DNA of 46,365 nucleotides from Pseudomonadota bacterium (GTDB lineage: Bacteria; Myxococcota_A; Bradymonadia; UBA4248): positions 1-46,365 of the forward strand of contig JAFOHE010000247.1 of NCBI GenBank assembly GCA_017421975.1, written 5' to 3'. The notes below the pieces were generated by a model. It was not told where the DNA came from, did not search any database, and worked only from the letters and a program-made list of their open reading frames with translations. A program made the translations under genes and the position numbers. Shown piece after piece: positions 375-43,909 of this stretch (within the stretch, counting starts at the first letter, position 1; every line of letters starts with the position of its first letter).

Positions 375-550
375 CGCGTATCAATATAGCGGGGCGTATC
401 GAGCCAGTAGAATCGTGTTATGACACGATTCTCTGGCGAGATAGCCACGCGCAGGCGGGCGTATTTGCCAAAAGGGACGCGTGAAAACGCGTCCCTTTTG
501 GCAAATAGCCCGATAAAAGCGAGCCGTATTGAGCCGCAGGCGAGATAGGC
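375..550 (+). repeat. Four consecutive bulged-G hairpin units (A1-A4)
   Basis: A1 375-391: CGC-G-TAT-caat-ATA-GCG. A2 393-446: GGC-G-TAT-(GCCAG.AGAATCGTGT-tatg-ACACGATTCTCTGGC)-ATA-GCC. A3 456-512: CGGGC-G-TAT-(17-bp perfect stem TTGCCAAAAGGGACGCG, loop tgaaaa)-ATA-GCCCG. A4 523-550: GCC-G-TAT-TGAGCC-gca-GGCGAG-ATA-GGC. Confidence 0.85.
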
Positions 551-568
551 GAGCCCATCCAATGTGTT

Positions 569-598
569 TTACGCAAATGCCTTCGCCTGTGGTATGAT
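569..598 (+). promoter_or_regulatory. Possible sigma70-type promoter for the AAA+ gene
   Basis: TTACGC (569-574), 18-nt spacer, then TATGAT (593-598) preceded by TGG (extended -10-like). By eye only. Confidence 0.3.
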
Positions 599-738
599 GC
601 CAATGGCCAAAGTCGTGCGGTACGGGGGCCAATTTAGACAAATGACGCCTCAAAACGCTACGACATTAAAAAACAGTCATGCAAAGGGATAATTCTCCCG
701 ACGCCGTTTTTAACCGATAAATCTTACAGGGGCGTATT

Positions 739-2169: not shown

Positions 2170-4485
2170 TCAGCCGGATGCCATTTTTTCAGCCAGGGGC
2201 TCGAGCTTACGCGTGAGTCTGCGTAAGCTTCGGGACTCCTCGACGCGCAAGATATCGAGTGAGCCCGCAAGATTGAGCGATTCGATTTCATTGAGGCGGC
2301 GACATTTGTCCGCCAAATCGACGTCATCACACATCACGAGAATACGCTTACCATAGGGCGTATTCGAGATCGTGAGCTGAAGCAGTTCGAGCGCCTGCGC
2401 ACGCGTCGATGCACGTGACGAAGCCAACGACTGGTAGACGGCGGCCACGATTTCTGTCTTATGAAGCAACATGAGCCCCTTAAACACGCGCTGTGTTGCC
2501 GCGACATACGCATCGGACAAAGAATCAATGATCCTTATATAATCACTCGGCAGAATCCGGTCTTCGTCATCGGTGCCCTTATCTACGCTTTCAGACGCTC
2601 CGTCCTCACCCAAAGCCGTGCTATTTGAACACTCAGACGCCCCGTCGTCTCCGCAAGAGACGGTGTCTGAACGCTCAGCCGCATCGTCGTCTCCGCAAGA
2701 GACGGTGTCTGAACGCTCAGCTGCATCGTCGTCTCCGCAAGAGACGGTGTCTGAACGCTCAGTCGCATCGTCGTCACCACAAGAGACGGTGTCTGAACGC
2801 TCAGCTGCATCGTCGTCTCCGCAAGAGACGGTGTCTGAACGCTCAGCCGCATCGTCCTGGCGATAGTTTTCCTTTTTCACAGCATCAGCGGCTTTTTGTG
2901 GCGTGTCTTCGAGCGCAGCTTCGAGCGCATTTTTTGCCGTATCAAGCGCCTTGGAAATCGCCAAACGGCAAACGAGCGTCGCCTGTGCGAGGCGTGCGTC
3001 GTGCCTGATTTGCTCGACGATGGTTTTGCGAAGGCTGTCCGAACTTAATGCCTCTTCATCGTGCGATTTCAAAACGGTAAATGCGTCGAGTGCGCCCATA
3101 CGGACGTTTTCGTCGGGATCGACGAGCTGCGCAGGATCGACCTGTGCAACATTCACCACAGCCTCATCTGCCGGCTCAACAGGGACTAGGATGCCTTCTT
3201 TGATCGCACTCGACTGGAGCGACATATACAAATGATTGGCGCAATAGCGGTTCAGATTACGCACGCAATAAAGCGACAAAAGCGCGACGGGAATGATGAG
3301 CAGCGGCAAGTAACGCGGCCCCATCATGCCCGCGAGAATATTGAGTACGACGCCTGCTGTTATGCCACCCAACGGGTTCATCACGCCCTTAAAGATAACT
3401 TTTGCTCTGTTTCTCAATAACCGTGGCAACGGCGAAAGTGCAATCTCACGCGCTGCATCCTGTATGACAAAGCGAAGCGCGACATCCATAAATCGCATCA
3501 ACACGACGCATACGGCGCTGTAAACAAACAGAAAAGGAAACGTGAACACCAAAAGGACGATTGGCGTCACGGCAAAGAGCGTTCGCGTCCTGAATCGCGT
3601 CAAAAAACTCGACAACAGCGTCAGTTGAACGACGAGATTGAAACCGTTCGATATTGCATTAAATTGCCCATAAAAATATGCAATACCATTTTGATCAAAA
3701 TTCGTCTGAAGGTAATCCTTGAGCGAATAGTCGATGATATTTGTCGTCACGGCTGTCAGGAAAAAGACGACAGAGAGGTTGCGAATGAGCGGCGAACGCA
3801 CGACGTCATCGAAGCCATTGATAAACTCGCGAAACATCGATCCCGATTCGTCATGTGGCATCGTCAACATCGTTTTTTCGGAGCGTCTGTTTCGATGCAA
3901 AATGATGACTGGAACCGTCGCTGTCGCAAAGAGCAGGCAATAACTGATGGGCAACGACGAAAATCCGAACCAATCAAGCATCATGGGGATACACGCCCCG
4001 GCCACAATACCGCCAATCGTCGAGAACGCACAGACGATATAGAACAGGCGTCGTCCCTGACGCGCATTAAACGCATCCCCGATGGCATTCCAGGCAATGA
4101 TGTTGCCCAAGGCTGGAGCCGTGATCAAAAAAGTCGCATACGCCTGAATATACCACGTCGCAGACGCCCCGCTAAAAGATTCGAAGATGAGCGTCATCAC
4201 GGCAAAAAGCAGCAGAAAACCCGCATTGAGCCGCGCCGGATGGACTGCTCTCAGAAGCCGATAATAGACGACGGATACCGCCATGAGTGCCAGACTTGAA
4301 TAAATGAAAAAATTGGCGATATTCACCGCCGGCCTGACGGAGAGCAGAATTGCGTCGCTCAATGTTCGACCGAATACAACGGTAGCGATCGACAAAAACG
4401 TCGCCAAAGATGCCATGAGAAGCGGCAAAAATTCGCCCTCACGCAAATTCAAAAAACGAAAAATCCGGCTCAAAGTGGCAATCAA
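2170..4485 (-). CDS. TLC/Npt (ATP:ADP antiporter)-like polytopic transporter with a C-terminal helical (HEAT-like) domain
   Basis: 771-aa ORF. The listed start is TTG with no clear RBS, so the start is uncertain. There are about 11-12 hydrophobic helices in the first ~430 aa. The N-terminus LNLREGEFLPLLMASL...GRTLSDAILL resembles the TLC-family N-terminal signature. The C-terminus is soluble and helical, and the protein carries an internal acidic 14-aa x5 repeat. Confidence 0.7.
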   Translation of the reverse strand: MIATLSRIFRFLNLREGEFLPLLMASLATFLSIATVVFGRTLSDAILLSVRPAVNIANFFIYSSLALMAVSVVYYRLLRAVHPARLNAGFLLLFAVMTLIFESFSGASATWYIQAYATFLITAPALGNIIAWNAIGDAFNARQGRRLFYIVCAFSTIGGIVAGACIPMMLDWFGFSSLPISYCLLFATATVPVIILHRNRRSEKTMLTMPHDESGSMFREFINGFDDVVRSPLIRNLSVVFFLTAVTTNIIDYSLKDYLQTNFDQNGIAYFYGQFNAISNGFNLVVQLTLLSSFLTRFRTRTLFAVTPIVLLVFTFPFLFVYSAVCVVLMRFMDVALRFVIQDAAREIALSPLPRLLRNRAKVIFKGVMNPLGGITAGVVLNILAGMMGPRYLPLLIIPVALLSLYCVRNLNRYCANHLYMSLQSSAIKEGILVPVEPADEAVVNVAQVDPAQLVDPDENVRMGALDAFTVLKSHDEEALSSDSLRKTIVEQIRHDARLAQATLVCRLAISKALDTAKNALEAALEDTPQKAADAVKKENYRQDDAAERSDTVSCGDDDAAERSDTVSCGDDDATERSDTVSCGDDDAAERSDTVSCGDDDAAERSDTVSCGDDGASECSNSTALGEDGASESVDKGTDDEDRILPSDYIRIIDSLSDAYVAATQRVFKGLMLLHKTEIVAAVYQSLASSRASTRAQALELLQLTISNTPYGKRILVMCDDVDLADKCRRLNEIESLNLAGSLDILRVEESRSLRRLTRKLEPLAEKMASG
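2632..2857 (-). repeat. In-frame 42-bp tandem repeat x 5.4 inside the transporter gene
   Basis: Units start at 2632, 2674, 2716, 2758 and 2800, with a partial unit at 2842. Unit is CTCAGCYGCATCGTCGTCTCCGCAAGAGACGGTGTCTGAACG, with 0-5 differences among full units. It encodes (D)DAAERSDTVSCGD repeats. Confidence 0.9.
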
Positions 4486-4588: not shown

Positions 4589-4697
4589 AAGTCGTAAGGC
4601 ACAACGCCCGCGGCCTTATACCTCAAACGGATCATTTTGGAAACACCTACACCTCATGTAAGTTGATGTAAGTGATCATTATCCGTCACTTTTGTGT

Positions 4698-4812
4698 GGG
4701 GGAAGTCTCCCCCTACGCGTCTATTTTCCTGCAGGGACGTTCCCAGGAACGTCCCTGCAGAAAAATACGCCGCTACCCCCTCAGCGGGGGCTTAATGCCC
4801 CCGCAACGCCCC
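4698..4812 (-). repeat. Composite repeat module B (G5A/TC5 hairpin, bulged-G unit B1, C5/G5/C5 block)
   Basis: B0 4698-4713: GGGGGA-agtc-TCCCCC. B1 4717-4773 reads on the minus strand GCGGC-G-TAT-(19-bp stem containing GGGACGTTCC)-ATA-G.CGC. B2 4770-4812: CCGCTACCCCCTCAGCGGGGGCTTAATGCCCCCGCAACGCCCC. A near-identical module lies at 20949-21089. Confidence 0.85.
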
Positions 4813-4834
4813 GTGTGGGACGCATGACGGGCGA

Positions 4835-6578: not shown

Positions 6579-8513
6579 TTAGCACTGCATCATGCAAGCG
6601 ATATAGTTCAGCTTATCCGTATTCGGATTATGTTCAGTTTCGCATTGTTTAGAACAATTTTCAAATGCAGTTTTCTCACTGTCATTGTACGTTTTATCTT
6701 CGATAATATCCGAGCTGAAGCGCGGTTCAATGACGGTCATGACGATATTTTCGTGAGAAGAGAGACAACGTCCCTCATTGACTTTTTCGGCGAAGCATCC
6801 AGGTAAAACCTGCTTCATGGTGCCCGTCAGGCGTTTGAATTTACGTTTCTGACAAAAGACATTCTTACGAAGGTTATCATCGAAGATGGTAATACACCCA
6901 TCAAGGATGTCGAACCCGGCAATCAGCGAAGAGCTTGCGACAGAGATTTCACTGCTGATCTTACCGCCGTCAAATTCGCCGTTAGCGCGAGCCTTCCACT
7001 GGTCATAGCTGTCAAGATTCGAATATTCTGTACACTTCGGATTGTTGTTACATTCTGTTCGGCATGTTGCTTCATCAGAATTGCTTTCGATTTTTCCGTT
7101 ACCGTTGTCATCGCAATCGATGAAGTAACTCGACAAATCGATGTTCTCGACCGTAATGATGGAGCTTTCCATGGCTTCAAGTTTGACACAAGACGCAAGG
7201 TCTGTCTGATTGTTACCGTCAGAACCGCACATCAAGACTTTCCAATCGACCTCAAGTGGCTGAGGCGGTTCAATATAGGCGAACGCATTTTTTTCGGCCT
7301 TACACTCGGCTTTAGCCTGTTGGCGCGCCGGATTCGGCACAGCCTCAGTATCGACACCATATTTGGCATCCAAGGCAGCATCCGAACATTCCGTAGCACG
7401 TTCTTCATTAAACAAGGCCCAGCAGTCCACGATTTCGGCCATATTGGCGAGTTCTTCGTCGGTGCATGGACGTGGATCACCCGTATCCTTATCGACGCAA
7501 TAGCCGGCGCCCGTATCGCCATCTTCAGGCGCAGGATCCGTGTCTTCAGCCGTCGAGCGTTCCTTATTCTGGATACCCCAGGACGGGAACTGCATCTGCG
7601 TCATGCCCGTGAATTCGGCTATACCACCCGTGACTTCACAGATACGGTCGCCGATATCGACGCGGGCAGGCTGAGAATATGAATAGATGAAGATCGAGTT
7701 GAAACCGTCTTTCATGCCGTCTTCGCCGACATCGGAGACATAGAATCCCGTCGATACGACGTTTGAAACGACAAGGTCATGGCCTTTTTTGGCTTTTACG
7801 TTACCAAATTGCTTAATGAGCGGTGTCACGCCATCGGGAACATCGGGATTATACTGGATCGTGTGAATGGTCTGATCTTCAAAATAGAACTCATCCGAAA
7901 CACCCGTGGCGAGCGAACCAGTGAGAATACCATATTCATTTTCGGTGGCATCCTCGATCCAGAGACGCGTAGCACCATAAGCAAAGCGAAGTTCGACATT
8001 TTCATAGGCTGTCGGATTGGAATTTTCGGGATCCGCAGGGTTCTGCCAAGTACCCAAAAGGCCGTTTTGGAAGGTCACTTCCTGAACGTTAAGTTCACCG
8101 GGGACCGATTTGATCCGCACGGTACCATTAAAAGAAGGATTAAATTTGCCGTGAACATCGACAGCATAGGCGGCGAGGCCAATTTTTAAGCCAGATTCGC
8201 GCTCTGATTCGTTGAGCCACTGGACTTTATCGACCGTCGTTTTTGATTCGTCTTTCCAGATGTATTGTTTCCAACGCGGTGCCTGAAATGGAAGCGGTTC
8301 AGCTTGTGACCCGCGTTCAACACTGGGATCGACGCGCACGACAAAAGCCTTCGTAAAGGGCACACAGACGGGGTTACCATCATCACCGACGTGACAGGCT
8401 TTGTCGTATTGATGATCGACCTTTTCTTCGACGCAACCCGTAGCCAAAAGGCCAGATACAGCCAATCCGGCAAGAATCATGCAGGTACGTGTAAACTTCA
8501 TTTTTTTACTCAT
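6579..8513 (-). CDS. Cys-rich lipoprotein with an ExeM/NucH-like OB-type module
   Basis: GGAGGT RBS; the start is ATG 8513 or GTG 8516. Lipobox LLATG-C. The segment VVSTGFYVSDVGEDG..FIYSYSQPARVDIGDRICEVTGGIAEFTGMTQ resembles the OB-like module of extracellular nucleases (from memory). No catalytic motif was recognised. Confidence 0.75.
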   Translation of the reverse strand: MSKKMKFTRTCMILAGLAVSGLLATGCVEEKVDHQYDKACHVGDDGNPVCVPFTKAFVVRVDPSVERGSQAEPLPFQAPRWKQYIWKDESKTTVDKVQWLNESERESGLKIGLAAYAVDVHGKFNPSFNGTVRIKSVPGELNVQEVTFQNGLLGTWQNPADPENSNPTAYENVELRFAYGATRLWIEDATENEYGILTGSLATGVSDEFYFEDQTIHTIQYNPDVPDGVTPLIKQFGNVKAKKGHDLVVSNVVSTGFYVSDVGEDGMKDGFNSIFIYSYSQPARVDIGDRICEVTGGIAEFTGMTQMQFPSWGIQNKERSTAEDTDPAPEDGDTGAGYCVDKDTGDPRPCTDEELANMAEIVDCWALFNEERATECSDAALDAKYGVDTEAVPNPARQQAKAECKAEKNAFAYIEPPQPLEVDWKVLMCGSDGNNQTDLASCVKLEAMESSIITVENIDLSSYFIDCDDNGNGKIESNSDEATCRTECNNNPKCTEYSNLDSYDQWKARANGEFDGGKISSEISVASSSLIAGFDILDGCITIFDDNLRKNVFCQKRKFKRLTGTMKQVLPGCFAEKVNEGRCLSSHENIVMTVIEPRFSSDIIEDKTYNDSEKTAFENCSKQCETEHNPNTDKLNYIACMMQC

Positions 8514-8537
8514 CACTCTATACCTCCATGGCCCGGA

Positions 8538-11153
8538 TTAATAACAGGCATCTTCGCCGGCATCCTGAAGCGCTTCCATGATGGCGGCACCGTTGCCGAA
8601 ACTACTGTAATCAATAAGGGCATTTTCTTCAGCCAGCTCGTTGTGCGGACGTTCGGAATTCTGACGTCCGTCCGTACTTGCGATGAAGCAGGAGACATCG
8701 AGACAGATCGTTTCTGCATTTTTTGTGACCTGGTTTATGCACTGCTCGTATTCGCTCACAATGCTCAGATCCTGGCAATCGGGATTTGCCGCCAGATAGT
8801 TGGCAGCACAACGCGAGTAATCGCTCTCATCCGCATTTGGCTCCGACGCGCATGTATTGCCGTTGGCAGCATCGGACGACACATAGCAGCTCTGGATCTT
8901 CTCCGTCGTAAACTCAAGCTCGCAATCGGTGTACGTTTTGCGATAGCATTCTTCCTTGGCTGTCAATTTCTTAAGGCCGACGCACTCGGCTGCACGCTCA
9001 TCCGCACGTTCGAGGCAAACTTCCTGCTCACTGTATTTGTACTGTGCCTTACACCATTTCGTAAGCTGCGCCACAGTATCGCGCTTGCAATCTTTGATGC
9101 GTTTGCAGCTACCGATTGGGACATCCGTACCAAAGGTAAGCCCTTTTGCAATATAATCATCGACGCAACGGTCATAGCACGAACGCATTTTTTCGATGCC
9201 GTCGATCGATACAGCACGAAGCTCAATACCGGTATCGGCCTGCGTCGTGTTGTATTTGAGCGTCGAGAAGCCCGAACCGCCGTGAGCCATATAGTTATTT
9301 GTCGAGAATTTGTAGAACCACTGTGGCTGCATCAATTCAATGCAGACATAATGATCGCCGGATTCGGAATCCGTCAGTTTTTCGCACGACGTAATGCCTT
9401 TACCTTCGCCGAGTTCAGCATCCGTGTAGTGGCAGAGCGAAGGATCGGGTTTCGGATTGCCGAATTCATCCTTGACTTCACACGAACCACGCACGAACTT
9501 GATGTCTTTTGCAAAATGGACGTTGGCATAATTGGACATGCCATTTTTGTCGATGCAGTACGAAGGCGTGTTGGCATCCGCGGGTTTGGGCGTCTCACCG
9601 CACAATTTTTTGAAGGCATCGACGCGGTACTGATAATCGAACAGATAACCGGCATCAAGGTAGTCATCGACAACCTTTTTCGCCGTATGGCAATCGAGCG
9701 TATAGCGGACACCCGACAACTGAAGCTGGCTCTGGCAACCGCGGTTCATCGAACGATACGTGTTGTAGTCCAAAAGCGACCAGACTTCGGTACCCGAAAG
9801 CGTCATCGTCGTCAGCGTGTTCGGGAACGGGAAAACGTTGTAGAGCTGATCGTTTGTGACGGGGCCCTGATTGACGTCAGTACGGATACCGAGCGAGTTC
9901 GTTGCACCAAAATCGGCTTCCGAACGCTGACGATAAACCATCTGATCTGCGAGGAAGTTGCCGAGCGGCGAATCGTGGCCGTTCGAACCGAAGCGGTTCA
10001 ACTTCATCGGCGCATAACCCACGATTTTGCGCAGATCCAAACGGCGTGCAAGTTCACGTTCATAAGGTGCGATGACGAATTCCATATCTGCATCGTCTGG
10101 AATCGTCGAATCGATCGGAATCGGCTTATACGTATGGCTGACGAGCGTCAAATCCCACGGATTGACAATGCCTTCATCCGCGCGGGGATACATCTCCGGG
10201 CGAATCATGTAGTCTGGATAAAAGACACCATCGAAATAGCCGACGTATTTCATGAAAGCGCCCGAGTGAACGAGCGGAACCATCTTGGGTGCATCGTTAC
10301 CGAATTCATCCACGCTCGCATCCGGAATATTTTTCGGCGGATTGAGGACGACGTGGAGATGACCACCAAAGACAATATCCAGTCCTGTCGTCTTGCGGAT
10401 GACGTCTTCATCATCGCCAAGGCCAAGGTGCGTGACCATCGTAATCACGTTGACGTCATTTTTGAGAAGATCAATGTAACTCTGGACGAGCTGAATGTTC
10501 TCAAGAACCGTGATGCCTAGGCTGTTGTCGCCGTAAGTAATGGAGGACATACTCGAATAGTTTGCCATACCAATGACAGCAACTTTGACGCCGTTCGCAT
10601 TGATAATCGCATAGGGACGCGCGATTTCTTTAAGCGGTTCCTCATTGACGCCCTGGACGTTTTTCCACTGATAGTTCGCCGCCAGAATGCTAAATTGTGC
10701 TTTTGCCAACTTATCATAAAGGTTAGAGGCGCCGAAGTCGAACTCGTGGTTACCGATAATGAACGCATCCATTCCGATATGGTTCAACGCAAGGATTTCC
10801 GGTTCACCTTCAAATTCATTGAAGATAGGCGCACCCTGAAAAACGTCACCCGAGTCGACGTGAACACTGTGTTGAGCCTGCTCTCGGATCTGTTTTATGA
10901 CCGTCGCCGCTCGCGCGATACCGCCAAACGGTTCATTCGCCTGAACCATACCAATGCGCTCATCCGTCGCCATCAAATCCATATCATACGGAAGCAAACG
11001 ACTATGAATGTCGCCCGTATGTATGACTGTGAGACGTATGCCGCTCTCAAAATTCAATTCTTCCGTTGACATCTCGGTCGTACATGACGCCGCAAGACCA
11101 CTGCACAGCATCAGCACGGCACAAAGACTAACCATTCTCTTTGTCACTGCCAT
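8538..11153 (-). CDS. UshA-type 5'-nucleotidase / metallophosphoesterase lipoprotein with a Cys-rich C-terminal extension
   Basis: GGGGAG RBS before ATG 11153; the listed ORF starts at an upstream TTG at 11165. Lipobox LAAS-C. Metallophosphoesterase motifs GDIHS, GDVFQG, GNHEFD and GGHLH are present, followed by a 5'-nucleotidase C-terminal domain. After that comes about 330 aa with many Cys. Confidence 0.85.
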   Translation of the reverse strand: MAVTKRMVSLCAVLMLCSGLAASCTTEMSTEELNFESGIRLTVIHTGDIHSRLLPYDMDLMATDERIGMVQANEPFGGIARAATVIKQIREQAQHSVHVDSGDVFQGAPIFNEFEGEPEILALNHIGMDAFIIGNHEFDFGASNLYDKLAKAQFSILAANYQWKNVQGVNEEPLKEIARPYAIINANGVKVAVIGMANYSSMSSITYGDNSLGITVLENIQLVQSYIDLLKNDVNVITMVTHLGLGDDEDVIRKTTGLDIVFGGHLHVVLNPPKNIPDASVDEFGNDAPKMVPLVHSGAFMKYVGYFDGVFYPDYMIRPEMYPRADEGIVNPWDLTLVSHTYKPIPIDSTIPDDADMEFVIAPYERELARRLDLRKIVGYAPMKLNRFGSNGHDSPLGNFLADQMVYRQRSEADFGATNSLGIRTDVNQGPVTNDQLYNVFPFPNTLTTMTLSGTEVWSLLDYNTYRSMNRGCQSQLQLSGVRYTLDCHTAKKVVDDYLDAGYLFDYQYRVDAFKKLCGETPKPADANTPSYCIDKNGMSNYANVHFAKDIKFVRGSCEVKDEFGNPKPDPSLCHYTDAELGEGKGITSCEKLTDSESGDHYVCIELMQPQWFYKFSTNNYMAHGGSGFSTLKYNTTQADTGIELRAVSIDGIEKMRSCYDRCVDDYIAKGLTFGTDVPIGSCKRIKDCKRDTVAQLTKWCKAQYKYSEQEVCLERADERAAECVGLKKLTAKEECYRKTYTDCELEFTTEKIQSCYVSSDAANGNTCASEPNADESDYSRCAANYLAANPDCQDLSIVSEYEQCINQVTKNAETICLDVSCFIASTDGRQNSERPHNELAEENALIDYSSFGNGAAIMEALQDAGEDACY

Positions 11154-11497
11154 TTTTCTCCCCAAGTTGAGGCCTGGTTACATGTCCAAAATTTGGACAC
11201 AAGTTAAACCGCTTCTATTCCATATTCAATAAACGCGCAACCGTCAAAAATCCACACTTGCAATCTTATTCCACTTTTTTTTTACACTTGAATTAAATTC
11301 CTCATTTTTCAGCTTAACAAAAGATAATGCCAATTTGTTAGTATACCCTTGAAGTCATCACAACTTTTGATGGTTTTTTCTACCCTATTTCAAGCTCTTT
11401 GAGCATATTTATCGTGTCACAAATTGAATTTTTCAGAAATATTTTTTATACGACATGTAGGTATATAAATTACATTTTCATACATATTTATTATTAT

Positions 11498-20948: not shown

Positions 20949-21089
20949 GGGGGATGGCTCCCCCTGCGCGGCTATTTTTTATGTAGGACGTTTCATGGAA
21001 CGTCCCTACAGGACGTTCCATGAAACGTCCCTACTACATAAAAAATACGCCGCTACCCCCTCAGCGGGGGTTCCCCCCGCAACGCCCCC
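20949..21089 (-). repeat. Composite repeat module D, homologous to the module at 4698-4812
   Basis: D0 20949-20964: GGGGGA-tggc-TCCCCC. D1 20968-21053 reads on the minus strand GCGGC-G-TAT-(~30-bp imperfect stem with two GGACGTT..AACGTCC sub-hairpins)-ATA-GCCGC. D2 is 21050-21089. The 30-nt stretch AAAAATACGCCGCTACCCCCTCAGCGGGGG is identical to 4761-4790. Confidence 0.85.
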
Positions 21090-25250: not shown

Positions 25251-25348
25251 GGTGGCGCGTATTGCGAAGCAAAGCGCCACCAGGCAGAGCGTATGGTGCC
25301 TGTGGCACCATAGCGTCGCCGCCACGGCGTATCGCAGATAGCCGTGGC
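25251..25348 (+). repeat. Bulged-G hairpin units E1-E3
   Basis: E1 25251-25281: GGTGGCGC-G-TAT-TGC-gaa-GCA-AA-GCGCCACC (one nt of the ATA is lost). E2 25289-25314: GC-G-TAT-GGTGCC-tgt-GGCACC-ATA-GC. E3 25321-25348: GCCACGGC-G-TAT-cgcag-ATA-GCCGTGGC. The last base of E3 is the first base of the slt stop codon complement. Confidence 0.85.
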
Positions 25349-30574: not shown

Positions 30575-30737
30575 AATTCCTCCGACGTATGACCGTGAAC
30601 CAGGATCGGTTCGTAGGTGGGCTTAAATCTTCGTAAGTTTACGCGCTTTGCAAAAAATAACGAATTTTTGAGGTCTTACCCACGTCGAGAAAATAAAAAG
30701 CTATGGTGTGAGCCGACGGCAGTTTTATTTTGGGCGT

Positions 30738-30800
30738 CTGCTATTGTCCTTACGGCCAATACGCAGGCGCACGCGGCCTATGGTTTCACCATACGGCCGC
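30738..30800 (-). repeat. Bulged-G hairpin units I1 and I2 in the queE-queD spacer
   Basis: Minus-strand reading. I2 30773-30800: GCGGCC-G-TAT-GGT-gaa-ACC-ATA-GGCCGC. I1 30738-30766: CTGC-G-TAT-TGGCC-gtaa-GGACA-ATA-GCAG, with one mismatch. Confidence 0.85.
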
Positions 30801-30811
30801 GTCAAATGCGA

Positions 30812-31459: not shown

Positions 31460-31465
31460 GAACCG

Positions 31466-32269
31466 TTATTCCCTCGGCAATTTGGCCAGGGCATCGGCCA
31501 AAAGACGGACGCGTGCAACATCGACGGGATTTCGCCAGAACCCATCTTTTTTGATCCACGAACCGACGATCAGGCCATCTGCTTTGGCACCGAAGGCGGC
31601 AATATTGGAAACATCTATGCCTGAGCCGATAATCACGGGTAGGCCGGCCACTTTTGCCTTATCGATATCATCGATATTGGCGGCACATCCCGTGGATACG
31701 CCCGTGACGATGAGGGCATCTGCACCGCAGAATTCGAAGCCATGGGCGAGATTTTCAAGGCTCGTGTCCCCCGTAATCACGTGACAGGAGTGCTTTTTTT
31801 GGACATCGGCCCAAACTTTGACGTTTGAGCCAAGACACTTTCGCAAGCGTAGAACTTCTGCGGCAGAAGCGTTCATCATGCCTTCGTCGGCGATATGGGC
31901 ATAGGCAAAACATTCTGCACGAATGAAAGAAGCACCGGCACACGAAGCAATCGCCATCGCTTCACAATTGGCTGCGGCGAGGACCTGAATCCCGACGGGA
32001 AGATCAAAACGGCTGACGACTCTGTCGACAGCCATCGTCATACAAGCGACGATTTCGGGACCCACATGTCCATTCAGGTACGGCAAATCGGCCATATTTT
32101 CGACGAGGAGCGCATCGCAACCGCCGTTGACGAGGGCTTCTGCATCAAATAAGGCGTCATCCATAATTTGGGAAACCGATTTGCAACTTCCAGGCGTTCC
32201 GGGAAGGGCACCAAGATGAATCATACCGATGAGGGCGCAACGCGATTTTTGATTGGAGAATAAAACCAT
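31466..32269 (-). CDS. BtpA/SgcQ-family TIM-barrel protein
   Basis: AAGGA RBS before ATG 32269; the listed ORF extends to 32296. The pattern LIGMIHLGALPGTP...VENMADLPY...ADALIVTG..TG...PVIIGSGI...ADGLIVGSW.K matches the family (from memory). The stop lies 6 nt before the queE start. Confidence 0.75.
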   Translation of the reverse strand: MVLFSNQKSRCALIGMIHLGALPGTPGSCKSVSQIMDDALFDAEALVNGGCDALLVENMADLPYLNGHVGPEIVACMTMAVDRVVSRFDLPVGIQVLAAANCEAMAIASCAGASFIRAECFAYAHIADEGMMNASAAEVLRLRKCLGSNVKVWADVQKKHSCHVITGDTSLENLAHGFEFCGADALIVTGVSTGCAANIDDIDKAKVAGLPVIIGSGIDVSNIAAFGAKADGLIVGSWIKKDGFWRNPVDVARVRLLADALAKLPRE

Positions 32270-32279
32270 TTTTTGTCCT

Positions 32280-35200
32280 TTAATTGTTGGCATCATAAAC
32301 GCCGAAAATATCGCCTAATTCACTGTCAGCTGCCTGTTGGGTATAGCCGCAGGAACGCTGAACGGGGATCAGAGGCGTGCCATCCGGCAGGTAGAGGGCC
32401 GGATCGAAATCGTATTTGAGCGGATCACGTGGATCCGGAACATAGAATGTGATGGGCTGCTGTTGCATCAGTTCAATACTTGCAGCCGATGGACAGCAAG
32501 GCTCAAAGGGCACAGGCATTTTGCGTTTTTCAAACCGTGCACGCATCTGTGCGAGCATTTCGGGGGTACATTTGCGCCGATACATTTCGCGAATGTAAAA
32601 GTTCATCGTTTTTTGGAGTGCCTTGGAGACGACGCCCTGCGTGCGATACAATTCGCCTTTTCGCGGCCCTGGTATGATGGCAATCAAGAAAGCGGCTTCA
32701 TTGAGCGTCAGCGCATCACTACGCTTACCGAAGTAATACTTTGCCGCTTCTTCAATGCCGTAAATTTCGGGGCCGAACTCAATGATATTGAAGTAGATCT
32801 CCATGATTCGCTGCTTGGGAATATGGAGAATGGACTCCATAAGCCACGTGTAGAGCGCTTCCTGTCCTTTGCGTGCCAGAGTTTTGTTTCGGTCAAAGAA
32901 GAGATTTTTGATGAGCTGCATACTAATCGTCGATGCGCCGCGATAAAATTCGCCCCTTTCGACGTTACGCGCCAATGCAGCCTTGATCTGAAGTGGGCTA
33001 AAGCCTGCATGCGTAAAGAAGGAACCGTCTTCAGTCGTCGTAATGAGCTGCACGAGCCATGGATTTAGGTCTTCGAAGAGCACCCAGTTGGGGAAGCGGA
33101 TGCGGACGTCATCAGCGGTTTGTTTAGGCAAATACGTATCGGTCATGACGCGTCTGACGCGGTCAAAGACAGTGACCTGATGCGTCGAAGCCGGAATCAC
33201 GATGTCGTGTGGCAAAAGTGCATTGGGATCATTGACGTGAAAGAGGAATCCTGTATTGAGCGCCATTAAATCGCGATTGGCTGGCCAGGCAAAAACGCCG
33301 AAATCATCGGATGTTGTCAAATCAAACTTATGTTGTGTGGCATCAATATCGTCGAGCCGACCTTTGGCCGTCAGCTTAAACGCGATATTGCCGCGCGCCT
33401 GAAGGCCATCGAGTTCTGTGCGTATGGCATGTGGAATGGCATCAAAGACGGTCTGAGCGGCCTGATCGGGCAACTGAAGGGCCAGATCGTAACGCCACGT
33501 GTCATATTCTGTCGTTCCAGCGAGTTTTCCGGTTCTCTGCCTGACCATATGTTCTTTGGCGAAAGTTCCGTTAAACAGGACTTTTGCAAGATCCCGCGTG
33601 ATTTCACATTCAGCGATCGTAAGCGAAGGATAGGGCTTGGCAGCCACATTGGCTTTGAGCTTCACTTCACTGTCGAGCGAAAGGGGTTCCGTACTAATGA
33701 TATCGCTTACGATGGAGAATCCCTTTGTAGAGAAAGCCGTTTCGAGCGAAGCAGACTGAGCGGCGACGTTGCCGTTTATCGTGAGATGACCACGCGCCGA
33801 AGCGTTATCCATTTCGAAGAAAGCGAGGATGCGTTCAAGTGGCGTCAAATTGAGTTTTGTTCGTGGCACAGGTTCCCCATCCCGAAGATATGTGCGAATC
33901 TTTTCGCGCATGGCTTTGGTCTCGGGGGTTGCATTGAACGTCGGGACATCGAGGGTCGCCTGAAAATCCTCATTTTTCATATTATAGATGCCGTCGAGCG
34001 TCCACGCTGTTTTGAGCGGCGACGTCATCTCGCCCGTCACGCGGAGATCGACGATTTTTCGGATGCTTCGATATCCGCTTTCGAGGTTGAGATGTTCCAT
34101 CTTGTAATCGGCGCGAGCTGCCTTACGCGCATCATGCAGATGAAAAGACGCATCCGAGACGTAGAAGCGCTGTGAGAAGTAATAATCCTTGATATCGCGC
34201 TGACGCGCATCGGCATCGCTATCCACGGCATCGCCGTCATGTTTTGGTAGTATGAAAGCCGATTTGAGGGCTTTGGCAAATGCCGTCAGATCATTGCCTT
34301 CATCATTGAGCGTCATATTGACGACGGGTTTTTTGAGATCAATTTCTTTGAAGTAGACGCCACTGACTTTTTTGGGTGGTAACGCCATGAGGCGGATATT
34401 GGCGCGTTCAGCCGCAAAGAGCGTCGTATCGCCTTTTGCGATGCGGGGTTGATCGAAAGTCAATGTCGTCGGAAGCGTCCATGTCAGCGTCTGTGTCTCG
34501 ATGGCATAATCGGCAACCTTCAAGAGTTCTGGAATGGCATTGGCCTTATTTCGCGGCATTGTGAGCGTCAACGCGCCTTCCGATTTTCCCATCATTTCGG
34601 CACTGAGCGTCGAAGCATATTCGTTTTTGGTACCCTTTTCGTCGAGCGTAAAACCGGCTGTTGCCGTGAGTTTGATGACTTTCTTTGCATCGCGTGATTC
34701 CGTCGAAACGGCGATATTTTTTGCGTTTAACGCCGTGAGGGAAGTTGAAGCCACCAGAGGCAAACTGGGCATGGCGATTTGCACGTCATTGACGGAGACA
34801 TCAGGTAAAGGCGTGATGTATCTTTTCCACGCAGGCGGCGTTTTTTCGTCATCCTCGTCGCCATTTTCGCGATCCGTGGTTTTCACCAGCGCCAACAGAT
34901 CTTCAAAGTTGTGGTGTCCGTCTTTGTAATTGAACGTTATTTGGACGTCATTGACTTTGACATCAGCCAAACGGGGTTCAGCGATGCCAGGAATACCGGC
35001 GAGGTAGAGATCGACCTGATCGACGGTTATCGCTGGTTGCTTGGAATCTTTGTCAGCGATCGTGATATCATTGAGCGTCAAGTGACGCAGTGAGCGTAAG
35101 CGGACATCACCCAAGGCTATTTTACGTCCTGTTTTTTGCTCAGCAGCGGTGAAAGCCTCCTCAAGTTTTGCGTGGATAATGCCAGGCACAACGGCGTACC

Positions 35201-35309
35201 AAGCGGCGGCAGCGCCGAGGATGAGAATACCGAAAACAGCGAGGAGAATGATGAGGATACGTTTATTTTTTGAAGACATCTTGTACGCCTTTGAAGCCCG
35301 AACCATCAT
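32280..35309 (-). CDS. Peptidoglycan glycosyltransferase (GT51) with a ~650-aa membrane-anchored N-terminal extension
   Basis: 1009 aa, with an alternative start at 35279 (MSSKNKR). It has an N-terminal TM helix. The C-terminal GT51 motifs are EDGSFFTHAGF, GASTISMQLIKN, RKGQE and YFNIIEFG. No transpeptidase domain is present. The N-terminal part has an AsmA/DUF748-like repeating-strand pattern (weak, from memory). Confidence 0.8.
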   Translation of the reverse strand: MMVRASKAYKMSSKNKRILIILLAVFGILILGAAAAWYAVVPGIIHAKLEEAFTAAEQKTGRKIALGDVRLRSLRHLTLNDITIADKDSKQPAITVDQVDLYLAGIPGIAEPRLADVKVNDVQITFNYKDGHHNFEDLLALVKTTDRENGDEDDEKTPPAWKRYITPLPDVSVNDVQIAMPSLPLVASTSLTALNAKNIAVSTESRDAKKVIKLTATAGFTLDEKGTKNEYASTLSAEMMGKSEGALTLTMPRNKANAIPELLKVADYAIETQTLTWTLPTTLTFDQPRIAKGDTTLFAAERANIRLMALPPKKVSGVYFKEIDLKKPVVNMTLNDEGNDLTAFAKALKSAFILPKHDGDAVDSDADARQRDIKDYYFSQRFYVSDASFHLHDARKAARADYKMEHLNLESGYRSIRKIVDLRVTGEMTSPLKTAWTLDGIYNMKNEDFQATLDVPTFNATPETKAMREKIRTYLRDGEPVPRTKLNLTPLERILAFFEMDNASARGHLTINGNVAAQSASLETAFSTKGFSIVSDIISTEPLSLDSEVKLKANVAAKPYPSLTIAECEITRDLAKVLFNGTFAKEHMVRQRTGKLAGTTEYDTWRYDLALQLPDQAAQTVFDAIPHAIRTELDGLQARGNIAFKLTAKGRLDDIDATQHKFDLTTSDDFGVFAWPANRDLMALNTGFLFHVNDPNALLPHDIVIPASTHQVTVFDRVRRVMTDTYLPKQTADDVRIRFPNWVLFEDLNPWLVQLITTTEDGSFFTHAGFSPLQIKAALARNVERGEFYRGASTISMQLIKNLFFDRNKTLARKGQEALYTWLMESILHIPKQRIMEIYFNIIEFGPEIYGIEEAAKYYFGKRSDALTLNEAAFLIAIIPGPRKGELYRTQGVVSKALQKTMNFYIREMYRRKCTPEMLAQMRARFEKRKMPVPFEPCCPSAASIELMQQQPITFYVPDPRDPLKYDFDPALYLPDGTPLIPVQRSCGYTQQAADSELGDIFGVYDANN

Positions 35310-35354
35310 AAAGCAGCCGCATCAGCGTCGGCAGGATTGTTTGACGCGTGAACG

Positions 35355-35454
35355 GCGTCGCGTATGGCCTTTGGCCATAGCGAACGCAGCGTCGCGCGTA
35401 TGGCCTTTGGCCATAGCGCGGCGGCCAGAGCGTATCGCGCAAGCGATAGCTCGG
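35355..35454 (+). repeat. Bulged-G hairpin units F1-F3
   Basis: F1 35355-35387 has the core CGC-G-TAT-GGCC-ttt-GGCC-ATA-GCG. F2 35392-35421: CGCGC-G-TAT-GGCC-ttt-GGCC-ATA-GCGCG. F3 35425-35454: CC.GAGC-G-TAT-CGC-gcaa-GCG-ATA-GCTCGG. Confidence 0.9.
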
Positions 35455-35495
35455 CAGAATTTTGCATAATATAGGCGGAAGTGGCTTTTTTGGGT

Positions 35496-35527
35496 AAAAA
35501 AAAGCCCGACAATGAGCATTATCGGGC
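35496..35527 (-). terminator. Intrinsic terminator of the phasin-like gene
   Basis: The minus strand reads GCCCGA-taatgctcattg-TCGGGC followed by T8. Confidence 0.7.
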
Positions 35528-35567
35528 AAAAAAAGCAAACTGTTTGGTGGGCACGCGATAGAGCGGC

Positions 35568-35888
35568 TTAGGCTTCTTCGTTCGCTTCTTCGTTTTCGCA
35601 ATCCTGGCAATCGCATGCAGCAGGGGCATCGCAGACTTTTTCTTCGACTTTTTCGAGGGATTCGCGGAGGCTGTCGAGATCTTTTTGCGTGGCGAGGCCA
35701 AGTGAAGCGGCAAATTGAGCCTTAGCAGCTTCGCGGAGTTCCTGGATGCGTGTGAGCGCATTGAGTCCCAGTTCCATCGCTTTTTGAGCCTGAGGCGATT
35801 CGAGTAATTTTTGCGCTTTTTCGCTTTCCATAATGGCCATGCCCTTGGAAATGACTTTATCCATGATAGCGGCGATCTGTTTGTTCAT
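35568..35888 (-). CDS. Small coiled-coil protein, phasin/COG3937-like, with a Cys-rich acidic tail
   Basis: 106 aa. LGLATQKDLDSLRESLEKVEEKV resembles the phasin-like family signature (from memory). The tail is CDAPAACDCQDCENEEANEEA. Confidence 0.5.
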   Translation of the reverse strand: MNKQIAAIMDKVISKGMAIMESEKAQKLLESPQAQKAMELGLNALTRIQELREAAKAQFAASLGLATQKDLDSLRESLEKVEEKVCDAPAACDCQDCENEEANEEA

Positions 35889-36145
35889 CAGTAAAACTCC
35901 TTATCAATTAAATAGCCGGTCACATCCGGCGGGAATAAAGTGAGTGTAACATGACGCGGCGCGTCATGCTATAAGAAACAGCATAAAAAACGCAGTTCCT
36001 TTTTGAATGGCATTGTTGGTGATGTTGAAGGCCGCTTTGATCCATGACGTTTAGGATCATTGTATCTATTTCAATATTCGCATCTTTTAATGATATATGG
36101 TATAAAGTGTGTACGGCTACAAACAATGGTCTATGAATCGTCCGA

Positions 36146-37091: not shown

Positions 37092-37115
37092 ATGGACGTT
37101 CCATAGAACGTCCAT
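37092..37115. repeat. 10-bp-stem hairpin with a GGACGTTC core between convergent genes
   Basis: ATGGACGTTC-cata-GAACGTCCAT. It is followed by the perfect palindrome ATCGTGATCACGAT (37117-37130), which straddles the tex stop codon, and then by T6. Confidence 0.8.
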
Positions 37116-42500: not shown

Positions 42501-43459
42501 TTTGTATGATACGCTGTGAGATCCTGACTATCGCGTTTGGTGGCGCGAGCCGAGTTGACGTCAATGGCTGTCAGGGCTTCGGTTGGGTCAATGACAATGA
42601 AGCCACCACTGGGCAAAGAGACAGTTCGCGCATAAATCTGGTTGATCTGGCGCTCGATATTGTAACGCGTAAAAAGTGGCGTGCGATCATCATAATACTT
42701 AATGCGATCACTACCGCCATCAACCGTTGCATGAATATAAGCAAGGGCACGTTCATAGCACGAGCGGTTGTCAATGAGGACTTCGTTAATCGTCGAATCA
42801 AAATAATCGCGCATGGCCTGAACGACGATGTCCTGATCATTATAAAGGAGCGTCGGTCCATTGCTTTTTTCGTACTCAGCTTCAATTTTGTGCCACAGCT
42901 GAATGAGGACTTTGGCATCGCGAAGCAGGATAGCACGGGACTGATCCATGGCATTGGTACGCACGATACAGCCATAGCCATCTGGCAGATCGAGGCTACG
43001 CGCTTTTTGGGTCAAATCGGCACGTGCATCTTCATCGACTTTCCGCGAAACACCACTTTTGGCGTCTTTGGGCCGCAGGACGAGGTAACGTCCTGCGAGG
43101 CTGATGTTTGTCGTCACCTGAGCGCCTTTGAGCCCCGTGGCGTCTTTGATGACCTGAACGATCAACGGTTGCCCCACGACGAGGACATCACTGATTCTCT
43201 GGGCATCTTTAACCGGCTTGTGATAAGCACTTTCAACGACATCGTTGAAAGCAAGAAAGCCATTTTTTACATCGCCAAAATCGATAAAAGCAGCGTTCAG
43301 GCTGGGGGCGATGTTCGATACAATGCCGCGGTAAATATTGTTGCGCAGAAGGCCGCTATTCTTGGTTTCGATCTCGAAATCTTCAAGCGTTTGATTTTCG
43401 ACGATCGCAACGCGCACTTCTTCCTCGCGACGACCATTAATAAGGATCTTACGAGTCAC
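39569..43459 (-). CDS. rne: Ribonuclease E
   Basis: 1296 aa with a GTG start and GGAG 7 nt upstream. The N-terminal catalytic half shows ILING...EEVRVAIVEN, NIYRGIVSNIAPSLNAAFIDFG and CPTCGGRG. The C-terminal ~780 aa are low-complexity and Arg-rich. Confidence 0.92.
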   Translation of the reverse strand: MTRKILINGRREEEVRVAIVENQTLEDFEIETKNSGLLRNNIYRGIVSNIAPSLNAAFIDFGDVKNGFLAFNDVVESAYHKPVKDAQRISDVLVVGQPLIVQVIKDATGLKGAQVTTNISLAGRYLVLRPKDAKSGVSRKVDEDARADLTQKARSLDLPDGYGCIVRTNAMDQSRAILLRDAKVLIQLWHKIEAEYEKSNGPTLLYNDQDIVVQAMRDYFDSTINEVLIDNRSCYERALAYIHATVDGGSDRIKYYDDRTPLFTRYNIERQINQIYARTVSLPSGGFIVIDPTEALTAIDVNSARATKRDSQDLTAYHTNLEAAAEIGRQLRMRDIGGLIVIDFIDMKSSKYQRDVERAMRTAMARDKARNKCERISANGLLEINRQRLSQALSMRTHLECPTCGGRGFIPTIEALGLNLIREIEARAVQGSIAGAIISLSPENAQTVQNARRHDIAQLEEDYHLHIEICAVREMSRGDESIEWLTKEAVEALHPGNAPHTNTCAVDVSSLVEVTEAYNAQSPIVDDSYRPNDFEEFSSEEARKRRASRRAKRGQGTADAMPAAEPAITPAQALDPTPDTSMTQKRVGLAVLTSLIRSAAPHLDERGNEPRRRMNIRGHRRPHREDGGIKMDTCLFALDMIRAICTIDGVEGEVSRKQLIENADRVVNWLSRALTSPEEIMSSRCAALIAQTSSRHARARLEVLFSGTEPASSDALGIALCTERDIVLHKFDGNSSRKALHAIDVAIAKRIAEVFGEKKETPAAPVAVKETTKEKASDKAVSFNPAVLQAPSTFDTSALEVQEEDPLAKSRRSRHTRRNRITDTDVDVNHDQTPETMTQAVATPPKAADAIVAAAAEMCSVADTTESDDAINGSRRRRRHSRKAIGDVPQFRDNNEVVCADVEVAPMTVIKYAEEDEIDIAQAITQELPAIEAPEGSFSQRNRRERSRRRTARSAGPAPENVDVSPIAEAVADDETTVDVDNGNVMPARRERRERRRDRAAVAITPQADQNDVLQIASRIEDDAISKEIDDLFSDLMYRPMQEIETMAPVSNPIDEQRNDASRVRRARRGRISDDAVTTKKDDAITTEKRETVLKNEMNAESEIEQMTLVAAKDNDAAPKTNERRPRRTRSRVTREQSDSAATEQIQIQTEVVTKQEITPETPVATDKAIKSEATTRHETRRVRKTTARRVASSMETVTENTPVAAEPAQTMLQNPVEENNEIVDTPSMPASEKRVRRSAARRAIARTTEKTDVVAANNVDSTSSNGESTEPVTRDADAEAAKRVRKTRRSRMDEI

Positions 43460-43819
43460 AGAAAACTCCGTATTCAGTTGTAAATGAAAGTTCCAGCAAT
43501 GCGCTCCACAACCCGATCACGAGAGCCTGGCTCACCGACGTGGTATCGGCACTGAAACAGGCGGTTTCTACGAATAAGCTCTTCAAGGGAGGCATCGATA
43601 AGCATCATCGACTGCAGGCTCAAACGTTTTTCGCATCAGAAACCATGACCCAGTGTTCAGAATCGGAACCGGGGGAACGCGAAAATTTCGTTCTTTCACC
43701 CTTATACCACATTTCTCATACAGACGCAGTAATTTTGGAGGTAGGCATCAATTATCCGTTGTTAGCGGGGCGTGGAAAATGGGGGAAGCCCCTCGTCACA
43801 CGGCGAATCGCCAGTCAGA

Positions 43820-43909
43820 GCGGCGTATTGGCTGTGACAAGGGGGCAAGCCCCCTTTGTCACAGCCGATAGCCGCGATGGCGAGCCGTATTGAGCGAAGC
43901 GAAATAGGC
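43820..43909 (+). repeat. Bulged-G hairpin units G1 and G2 in the rne upstream region
   Basis: G1 43820-43875: GCGGC-G-TAT-(19-bp stem TGGCTGTGACAAGGGGG.., one bulged A)-ATA-GCCGC. G2 43884-43909: GCC-G-TAT-TGAGC-gaa-GCGAA-ATA-GGC. Confidence 0.85.

Follow-up and report, generated by a model that had tools for sequence, protein, structure and literature searches.

Bulged-G hairpins of an uncultured gut bacterial lineage: an intergenic family under selection on its fold, arrayed head-to-tail and possibly REP-like

Introduction

Repeats of the repetitive extragenic palindromic (REP) type are among the commonest non-coding features of bacteria, and the mode of their recognition is known for very few. 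Reference systems for REPs and the REP-associated tyrosine transposases (RAYTs) are the E. coli REPs, the Pseudomonas REPINs and the Stenotrophomonas SMAG repeats, with superfamilies tagged by GTAG or CGTC (PMC3733652, PMC2817692). As published, REPs lie between unidirectional or convergent genes, form stem subfamilies with complementary changes, contain G-T pairs and have modular, self-complementary loops; head-to-tail dimers are rare in most REP families (PMC3733652). The present study concerns a family of intergenic hairpins with a single bulged G, here called bulged-G hairpins, which had been predicted from the letters of one metagenomic contig, JAFOHE010000247.1 (assembly GCA_017421975.1); this whole stretch of 46,365 nt is referred to as the window.

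Other described systems follow a related logic. Integron attC sites, which the integrase IntI reads as hairpins of single-stranded DNA (ssDNA), share with the bulged-G hairpins a definition by structure, extrahelical base(s), a variable terminal structure (from triloop to branched stem) and covarying stems. The subterminal hairpins of IS200/IS605 elements and of their non-autonomous derivatives, the palindrome-associated transposable elements (PATEs), are likewise asymmetric, being imperfect hairpins with an extrahelical base that a Y1 HUH enzyme reads as ssDNA on one strand; they differ in flanking a transposase or a defined element and in conserving their sequence and cleavage tetranucleotides, features that were not identified for the bulged-G family. 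The operators of the MS2 and PP7 coat proteins and the iron-responsive element offer an RNA parallel in their invariant bulged base, fixed pairs, covarying helices and possible multiplicity, but they are read in a set transcript orientation, whereas bulged-G hairpins occur in either orientation and with nested DNA repeats. Based on the collective evidence, we consider it about an even chance that the bulged-G hairpins constitute a lineage-specific intergenic repeat family akin to REPs and bacterial interspersed mosaic elements (BIMEs), with an identity vested in the fold and an asymmetric 9-nt core.

Results

Anatomy and density of the bulged-G hairpins

Each bulged-G hairpin comprises a GC-rich outer helix that ends in C and is shut by a C-G pair, a single unpartnered G that stands extrahelical on the 5' arm, TAT, a variable inner module, ATA, G and the return strand. 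Above the extrahelical G come three fixed pairs (T-A, A-T, T-A) and then a freely variable apical module, which ranges from a loop of 3-4 nt (often GAA, GCA or GNRA) to a nested palindrome from another repeat family. All 18 copies were located in the window where the original prediction had placed them (Table 1), and all are intergenic, the variant E1 included; the basic units measure 17-37 nt, the longer ones holding nested repeats. CGTAT is present in 18 of 18 copies and ATAG in 17 of 18, as predicted, the exception being E1 with AAAG. Two smaller counts needed correction, in that the copies occupy 8 loci (A, B, C, D, E, F, G and I) instead of nine and that GAA loops occur three times instead of twice.

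Copies were counted with a regular-expression descriptor (CGTAT...ATAG with the C paired to the final G and a perfect outer helix) against 200 dinucleotide shuffles. With a helix of at least 2, 3, 4 or 5 bp, the window gave 29, 19, 12 and 8 matches, compared with 2.9, 0.77 +/- 0.88, 0.18 and 0.05 expected, hence a density far above that of the shuffled control which had been proposed as a check. Neither the bulge-free form CTAT..ATAG nor the symmetric form CGTAT..ATACG has a single match in the real window sequence. A covariance model trained on copies chosen for their core cannot test the invariance of that core, and an unbiased window scan for any hairpin with one 5' bulge was therefore used instead, together with the shuffles; it returned C.G.TAT as the sole outstanding non-homopolymer class (12 matches). 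Shuffles, absent control forms and the unbiased scan together argue that the conserved core is not an artefact of how the copies were found. Outside the listed copies and their combinations, the only match with a helix of at least 3 bp (22671-22725) lies in coding sequence, is devoid of an inner hairpin and is probably due to chance; E2 has just 2 perfect outer pairs.

The outer helices had been described as freely covarying and unrelated in sequence. Covariation is upheld below; unrelatedness was overstated, since there are recurrent classes (GCGGC/GCCGC, GCC/GGC and CGC/GCG, with GGCGCGGC/GCCGCGCC in relatives), subfamilies and, in a termite-gut relative, dispersed units with identical stems. 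A4 and G2 have a 16-mer in common. GAA and GCA triloops are abundant at the apices, the motif GCGAAGC among them, and GNRA loops are also found. GCGAAGC is an exceptionally stable DNA mini-hairpin, which we take as a mere hint.

Distribution among relatives

Homologs of the SLT protein encoded in the window led to relatives at 97, 62, 55, 52 and 46% identity, and scans for DNA patterns added a termite-gut metagenome-assembled genome (MAG; WQTY01) and a roe-deer MAG; a scan of Joint Genome Institute (JGI) metagenomes with the SLT protein gave no relatives. Further lineage DNA comprised 54 contigs of 469 kb in total, mostly from one JGI metagenome. Intergenic CGTAT...ATAG hairpins were present in every relative fetched (loci L001, L087-L091, L093-L101 and L343-L396). 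With the strict descriptor, the lineage carries 18.8 per 100 kb, as against 0.25-0.49 in three sets from other phyla (2.85 Mb); the window has 37 per 100 kb and the relatives 17-19 per 100 kb over about 640 kb, which extrapolates to several hundred or more copies per genome. The bulged-G family is confined to one uncultured gut bacterial lineage.

Selection on fold and core

Covariation was evaluated in an alignment of 30 copies from 5 or more genomes, trimmed to 12 pairs around the core and composed of copies selected on three outer pairs and two of the three inner pairs. Standard pairs filled 90.8% of the cells, compared with 65.9% with shuffled partners, and the covariation score of 0.551, as against 0.121 after shuffling, was reached by 0/500 shuffles; partners slid by 1-3 columns were paired in 24-49%. 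The three outermost pairs, on which no selection had been made, were paired in 13, 22 and 26 of the 30 copies, the outermost least. The compensatory exchange of flanking pairs, previously read from the window alone, is thus confirmed.

Orthologous copies reveal the same constraint in place. The E cluster (three hairpins 3' of the SLT gene) is orthologous in the window and the related locus L088 and 87% identical between them (83/95 aligned positions), linkers included, when 4-fold degenerate sites in the genes flanking it are just 36-52% identical and hence near saturation. Its indels are confined to the three apical loops, and its stems have undergone compensatory double changes, T-A to C-G in E1 and G-C to T-A in E3, besides gaining one new G.T pair. 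At the opposite-strand SLT-stop site, L090 holds a copy with a T.G closing pair and L091 a composite copy; among the relatives compared there, only L089 is without a family member. Purifying selection acts on fold and core and has kept them in place over long times. The proposal of selection on a fold with one specific extrahelical base is accordingly supported by covariation, by compensation between orthologs, by the freedom of the apices and by the strand bias of wobble pairs described below.

Could the hairpins be passive structures, stabilising or terminating transcript 3' ends, with a core shared through common descent? Copies do lie downstream of genes, B1 stands between a stop codon and a real terminator, and the complement of E1 in L088 runs directly into T6 and resembles an intrinsic terminator. 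That last case is an exception, however, as none of the window copies has a T-tail. A terminator scan of 20800-36000 called no D, E, I or F copy as a whole hairpin and made one weak call, on a G-run adjacent to D1 reaching into its 5' arm; and the F cluster sits past the real terminator of its upstream gene (35527-35504, - strand), 49 nt upstream of the next gene. Descent alone cannot give the pattern either, because the asymmetric 9-nt core is invariant amid unrelated stems and with 4-fold sites near saturation, and the absence of unbulged or symmetric forms would be left unaccounted for. We judge this explanation very improbable. Classical intrinsic terminators were noted at 16130-16165 (bidirectional) and 35504-35527, in spacers without bulged-G hairpins or apart from them, so that the organism also uses ordinary terminators.

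Strand specificity, orientation and placement

Mismatches in the stems, scored on the bulged-G strand, comprise 17 of G.T type compared with 4 of A.C type, an A.C being a wobble on the other strand; by clade, the counts are 5:1 (window) and 12:3 (termite). The constraint on folding is specific to one strand. Several of the wobbles occur in copies with the bulged-G strand antisense to both neighbouring genes (C1, G1 and E1 of L088), which implies that the constraint is not exerted through the flanking mRNAs.

Sorted by spacer, 13 clusters lie between co-directional genes, 5 between convergent genes and none between divergent genes, and those in co-directional spacers have the orientation of the genes in 5 cases and the opposite one in 8. 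All seven co-directional spacers of at least 230 bp in the window carry copies (7/7), as compared with 0/3 divergent spacers. Adjacent copies are head-to-tail in 26/26 cases, with none inverted. Orientation is independent of transcription, and arrays are exclusively head-to-tail.

These observations bear directly on a reading of the arrays as RNA operators, in which the bulged-G strand would be copied into separate small RNAs or into antisense RNA. A protein that binds this RNA would then read the bulged G together with U-A/A-U/U-A, and tandem sites would titrate or recruit it, as with phage coat proteins or the iron regulatory protein (IRP). The 17 to 4 strand bias of wobbles and the strict head-to-tail order would suit such transcripts, as would GNRA loops, tandem sheared G.A pairs and the 87% conservation of the E cluster along with its linkers; moreover, C1 is directly preceded by an AT-rich stretch that resembles a promoter, and C2 is followed by a 10-bp hairpin. 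Against it, the hairpins are oriented at random with respect to the flanking genes and so cannot act within the mRNAs of those genes, and the arrays are not bracketed by promoter or terminator consensus sequences, promoter-like sites being no commoner than in shuffles. Divergent spacers are empty, although independent small-RNA genes need not avoid them, other DNA repeats are nested at the apices, and hairpins of the two orientations lie one within another in the termite-gut clade. Comparison with Rfam 15 gave the hairpins no match to a described RNA family at or above threshold, a check that the prediction had left to be made: in the window only tRNA-Ala passed the gathering threshold, nothing relevant appeared at E <=1 across the whole window, local scans yielded only generic long-hairpin (miRNA) noise, and related loci gave nothing at gathering and permissive thresholds. 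We therefore hold the RNA operator explanation, the foremost of the alternatives, to be unlikely, if still credible.

Nested apices, duplication and dispersal

The inner module had been described as a stem of variable length. Apices do vary freely, but the long stems are not simple: long copies are nested mosaics, in which other palindromic repeats occupy the very apex and point the same way as the host hairpin. One such family, GGACGTTCC..GGAACGTCC, with the general form GGACG(T/C)..N..(A/G)CGTCC and sometimes GTAG-tagged, has 6 matches compared with 0.11 expected, of which 4 are nested in A3, B1 and D1. GTAG-tagged palindromes occupy the apices of A2 and D1, and GTAGGGGCGACCG..CGGTCGCCC is the form found in the termite clade; the apex of G1 holds a G5-loop-C5 hairpin instead. 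The second nested palindrome of D1 is a 25-nt duplication that is absent from the 99%-identical strain L087 (17520-17580), which indicates ongoing remodelling at the hairpin apices.

Whole hairpins are also duplicated. In the window, F2 is a near-duplicate of F1 with a different outer helix, which points to local tandem duplication; L090 has tandem duplicates at 2875/2912. In the termite-clade organism, two subfamilies, S1 (GGCGCGGC-G-TAT-CTGC-loop-GCAG-ATA-GCCGCGCC) and S2 (CGGCCGC-G-TAT-TGCCC-loop-GGGCA-ATA-GCGGGCG), are always adjacent and dispersed at >=10 loci; stems and linkers are nearly identical across copies, while nearly every apical loop differs in sequence and length. The S1+S2 unit also appears inverted within an arm of a larger composite. 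The picture that results is BIME-like, one of modular and nested units that spread locally as well as by dispersal.

Table 1. Bulged-G hairpins and associated features (window coordinates unless a locus is given)
Feature	Position	Strand	Description
A1	375..391	+	cgc-G-TAT-caat-ATA-gcg; minimal copy, 4-nt apex
A2	393..446	+	ggc-G-TAT...ATA-gcc; tandem G.A pairs after core; GTAG-tagged palindrome in apex (407-435)
A3	456..512	+	cgggc-G-TAT...ATA-gcccg; apex palindrome GGGACGCGTGAAAACGCGTCCC
A4	523..550	+	gcc-G-TAT-tgagcc-gca-ggcgag-ATA-ggc; T.G pair, tandem G.A pairs
B1	4717..4773	-	gcggc-G-TAT...ATA-gacgc, one G.A mismatch in outer helix; apex palindrome GGACGTTCC..GGAACGTCC
B1 composite	4697-4813	-	Three-hairpin element with B1 as middle arm
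C1	11498..11534	+	8-bp outer helix, T.G after TAT, GCAA loop; antisense to both flanking genes
C2	11538..11569	+	ggacgc-G-TAT-cgcc..ggcg-ATA-gcgtcc
D1	20968..21053	-	gcggc-G-TAT...ATA-gccgc; apex with two GTAG-tagged GGACGTT..AACGTCC palindromes
D1 composite	about 20945-21090	-	Three-hairpin element with D1 as middle arm
E1	25251..25282	+	Variant: CGTAT but 3' AAAG; GCGAAGC apex; variant kept in L088 ortholog
E2	25287..25316	+	gc-G-TAT-ggtgcc..ggcacc-ATA-gc
E3	25321..25348	+	8-bp outer helix, C-GCA-G apex; abuts stop codon of opposite-strand SLT gene
I1	30771..30802	-	acgcggcc-G-TAT-ggt-gaa-acc-ATA-ggccgcgt; 10 nt past queE stop, same sense as genes
I2	30738..30766	-	ctgc-G-TAT-tggcc-gtaa-ggaca-ATA-gcag
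F1	35358..35383	+	tcgc-G-TAT-ggcc-ttt-ggcc-ATA-gcga
F2	35393..35420	+	Near-duplicate of F1, other outer helix (cgcgc/gcgcg)
F3	35428..35452	+	gagc-G-TAT-cgc-gcaa-gcg-ATA-gctc
G1	43820..43875	+	gcggc-G-TAT...ATA-gccgc with T.G pairs; G5-loop-C5 hairpin in apex
G2	43884..43909	+	gcc-G-TAT-tgagc-gaa-gcgaa-ATA-ggc; tandem G.A pairs, GCGAAGC apex
GGACG-family palindromes	475-494, 4735-4754, 20986-21005, 21011-21030		Nested at bulged-G apices
GGACG-family palindromes	37094-37113; 8647-8669		Alone in convergent spacer; in coding sequence
S1+S2 unit examples	L348 9120; L351 3813 and 7840; L369 10694; L375 7712		From L343-L396

A three-hairpin element around B1 and D1

Two window copies belong to a larger structure which, like the nested mosaics, the earlier reading had missed: B1 and D1 are middle arms of a three-hairpin element that extends across phyla. 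The element, ~80 nt long, has the plan GGGGCGTT[GCGGGG-loop-CCCCGC]T-nGAA-GGGG-TA-[variable arm]-GA-[GGGGAA-loop-TTCCCC]; B1 and D1 are flanked by a 5' hairpin, GGGGCGTT[GCGGGG..CCCCGC]T..GGGGGTA, and a 3' hairpin, GCA[GGGGG..CCCCC], and both composites have GGGGGTAGC at the foot, GTAG included. The 5' module matched at least 119 loci in reference genomes (the L222-L340 set, and L341 and L342 besides), with Treponema and other Spirochaetaceae, Fibrobacter, Verrucomicrobiota, Acidobacteriota, Bradymonadales and many Alphaproteobacteria among the matches listed, and nearly all listed loci share a three-hairpin layout of 74-100 nt in which the middle arm varies. A profile built from other phyla only retrieved the B locus of the window at E = 5.5e-7 (full length) and the D locus at E = 2e-6. 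The element has several copies per genome in random orientation relative to genes, and its neighbours are mutually unrelated; on alphaproteobacterial plasmids, mostly conjugative, one copy immediately precedes ArdC- or DUF932-type genes. Genes of the ardC and DUF932 types are typically leading-region genes.

In other phyla the middle arm holds other motifs, for example tandem G.A pairs or CGAGAC; it is a bulged-G hairpin only in this lineage, and always there. Since the other phyla that carry the element have bulged-G hairpins at just 0.49 per 100 kb, the form of the arm suggests that a lineage-specific factor imposes it. Two pairing registers coexist in the element, and for that reason its middle arm was not recovered by RNAalifold. 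Rfam 15 contains no family for the element. Membership in RF02937 (Clostridiales-2) was considered and rejected: an alphaproteobacterial copy scored 18.1 bits (E = 0.05) and the window copy 10 bits, as against a gathering threshold of 58.6, the weak likeness being limited to the 5' module GGGggUG[caGGGG..CCCCug]. In L251 (1366-2048) and L321, the element is cut off right past its first hairpin by unrelated DNA; the open reading frame (ORF) that starts this DNA, with the N-terminus MDQQVIFVGLDVHK..., looks IS110-like by eye, an unconfirmed impression, as Pfam found no domain in it.

The relation invites the inverse reading, namely that solo bulged-G hairpins are leftover middle arms of the element (GGGGCGTTGCGGGG..CCCCGCT..GGGG-TA-[arm]-GA-GGGG..CCCC), their spread and conservation following whatever mobilises or uses it. 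B1 and D1 are indeed full members by the above E values, the middle arm of the lineage element always has the bulged-G core, and the commonest solo outer helix, GCGGC/GCCGC, is that of the composites. We nonetheless find this origin decidedly improbable, given that the flanking P1 and P3 hairpins are present at only 2/18 window copies, that other phyla with the element lack bulged-G hairpins, and that the solo copies have many unrelated outer helices and no GTAG foot.

Search for a reading enzyme

The window contains no HUH gene, recombinase or other obvious candidate for an enzyme that reads the hairpins, in agreement with the original prediction, and neither the window nor the first ~170 kb of lineage DNA yielded a RAYT, an IS200 transposase or a recombinase. 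With E. coli RayT as the seed, a jackhmmer search of six-frame ORFs from all fetched loci returned two lineage genes, one at L352 9704-10372, with a Pfam Y1_Tnp score of 39.6 bits (cut-off 23), and a partial one in L377. The L352 gene is flanked, in the classical manner, by inverted copies of a low-copy palindrome, CTGGGAGTGCGGGCATCCTGCCCGC, not by bulged-G hairpins; on one side (within 9530-10420) lie three tandem 51-nt repeats, each of which includes that palindrome in degenerate form. A composite whose arm is a bulged-G hairpin stands 230 nt from the gene, a proximity that carries little weight because that composite served to retrieve all these loci. Next to the partial L377 gene, 420 nt of sequence hold no bulged-G hairpin. 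The lineage has Y1 enzymes, but the association by which RAYTs and REPs are defined is not seen for the bulged-G family, and the suggested search for a Y1 HUH gene flanked by such hairpins yielded none in the fetched loci.

The analogy to integron integrase (IntI) acting on attC, or to HUH/RAYT enzymes, with which the hairpins had been introduced, gains no support here, as attC cores and cassettes are missing, the L352 gene has other flanks and adjacent copies are head-to-tail by 26:0. That the hairpins are attC-like sites for a tyrosine recombinase of an integron-like system is extremely unlikely. The idea derives from a structure-defined hairpin with a conserved extrahelical base and variable terminal structure. 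The bulged-G sites, however, have no R''/R' core sites (RYYYAAC...GTTRRRY), and no integrase is encoded in the window or in the lineage loci screened; instead of cassettes they are flanked by housekeeping genes (rne, murI, glmU-like, queE, PBP) in conserved synteny, with up to four sites per spacer. Strand choice in attC is set, moreover, by two or three extrahelical bases, while the bulged-G hairpin has one.

A REP nested in the termite clade, GTAGGGGCGRCCG...CGGYCGCCC, has matches in Oscillospiraceae, Chloroflexota, Chitinispirillales and others among those listed and was of no help in finding lineage contigs; the loci from that search gave seven RAYT-like ORFs, which were used for a profile. 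A REP-like sequence, GTAGGGGCGRCCGNNNCGGYCGCCC, is spread over many unrelated phyla, the matches listed (L102-L220, e.g., L128 6955-7579, L167, L119, L174) including termite-gut Oscillospiraceae, Chloroflexota, Chitinispirillales and Bacteroidota, and in at least 3/7 of the RAYT-like ORFs it lies inside the ORF.

Discussion

The likeness of the bulged-G family to REPs and BIMEs is extensive. Both consist of short imperfect extragenic palindromes that are dense, clustered and lineage-specific, avoid divergent spacers, fall into stem subfamilies with complementary changes, admit G-T pairs and have modular or self-complementary apices; GTAG at the hairpin foot, in the B1 and D1 composites only, adds to the resemblance. 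As a REP/BIME-like family, the hairpins would work through their invariant asymmetric core, by which a protein would recognise the strand in its folded, single-stranded state. The recognised strand is more likely DNA, exposed in replication or repair, than flanking mRNA, since orientation is unrelated to transcription and wobbles are kept in copies antisense to both neighbours. As reader of the hairpin, a specific HUH enzyme (Y1, RAYT-type) is the leading candidate. The copies multiply by local tandem duplication and, in a relative, also occur as dispersed two-hairpin units; effects at the RNA level (3'-UTR hairpins, an occasional terminator stem) would be secondary.

Several points weigh against this assignment. 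The tag of classical REPs, GTAG or CGTC, is terminal and unpaired, whereas the bulged-G GTAT is internal with its TAT paired to ATA, and solo copies have no conserved flank or terminal tag; classical REPs are alike in sequence, whereas many bulged-G copies share only 9 nt; and classical REPs pair inverted, unlike the head-to-tail arrays described here. The one invariant extrahelical G is a further difference, and no RAYT flanked by bulged-G hairpins was found. With no terminal tag, no inverted pairing and no flanked RAYT, the family is not a member of any named one; a literature search with a conserved 13-mer returned nothing relevant. No partner protein was found in the window or the fetched lineage loci, the Y1 gene of L352 has its own palindrome, and the ssDNA substrate is deduced from sequence. 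The conservation of the E cluster together with its linkers, the GNRA loops and the tandem G.A pairs would also fit a functional RNA, and the number of copies per genome is an extrapolation from 46 kb and some 640 kb of relatives.

A further explanation departs from the REP/BIME-like assignment in the nature of the reader. The hairpins could be the sites of an undescribed, structure-reading ssDNA system, neither RAYT nor IntI, distributed across the core genome of the lineage, and maybe also the lineage form of the variable arm in the three-hairpin element. We rate this as distinctly unlikely. If true, it would reveal a widespread, unannotated class of ssDNA-active elements (e.g., priming or loading sites, or single-strand promoters), with a specificity arm that evolves with a host factor.

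The importance of the family lies in a set of properties that stand out from the familiar phenomenon of abundant intergenic palindromes: identity given by a fold and one extrahelical base under purifying selection, strict head-to-tail arrays, an invariant bulged-G code beneath hypervariable loops, and service as a landing pad for other palindromic repeats. The code (C-G closing pair, bulged G, T-A/A-T/T-A) is testable and enables the search for a hairpin-binding protein in an uncultured lineage of animal and termite guts. The family shows, too, that a structure-defined site logic like that of attC is not limited to integrons. The wider interest could lie less in the hairpins than in the three-hairpin element, which is conserved across phyla and has no entry in Rfam.

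Regarding the host, the genes of the window are housekeeping genes, among them rne, a Tex-like gene, a PBP/transglycosylase, btpA, queE, a PTPS gene, a glmU-like gene and murI, accompanied by the SLT lytic transglycosylase, a PP2C phosphatase and others. The same species is present at 99.4-99.9% identity in several public metagenome assemblies, and the nearest genome of the reference set is a MAG labelled 'Myxococcota bacterium', with MurI 57% identical. A 771-aa membrane protein (window 2170-4485, - strand) has a weak match to ATP/ADP (NTP/NDP) exchange transporters (E = 1.9e-6, far below the cut-off), and extracellular-nuclease-like and UshA-like nucleotidase genes lie at 6579-11165; together they may hint at nucleotide scavenging in a gut-associated organism. 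GC skew across 10001-45000 of the window is weak and changes sign, being negative over 10-25 kb and positive over 25-45 kb, and may reflect gene content, not a replication landmark.

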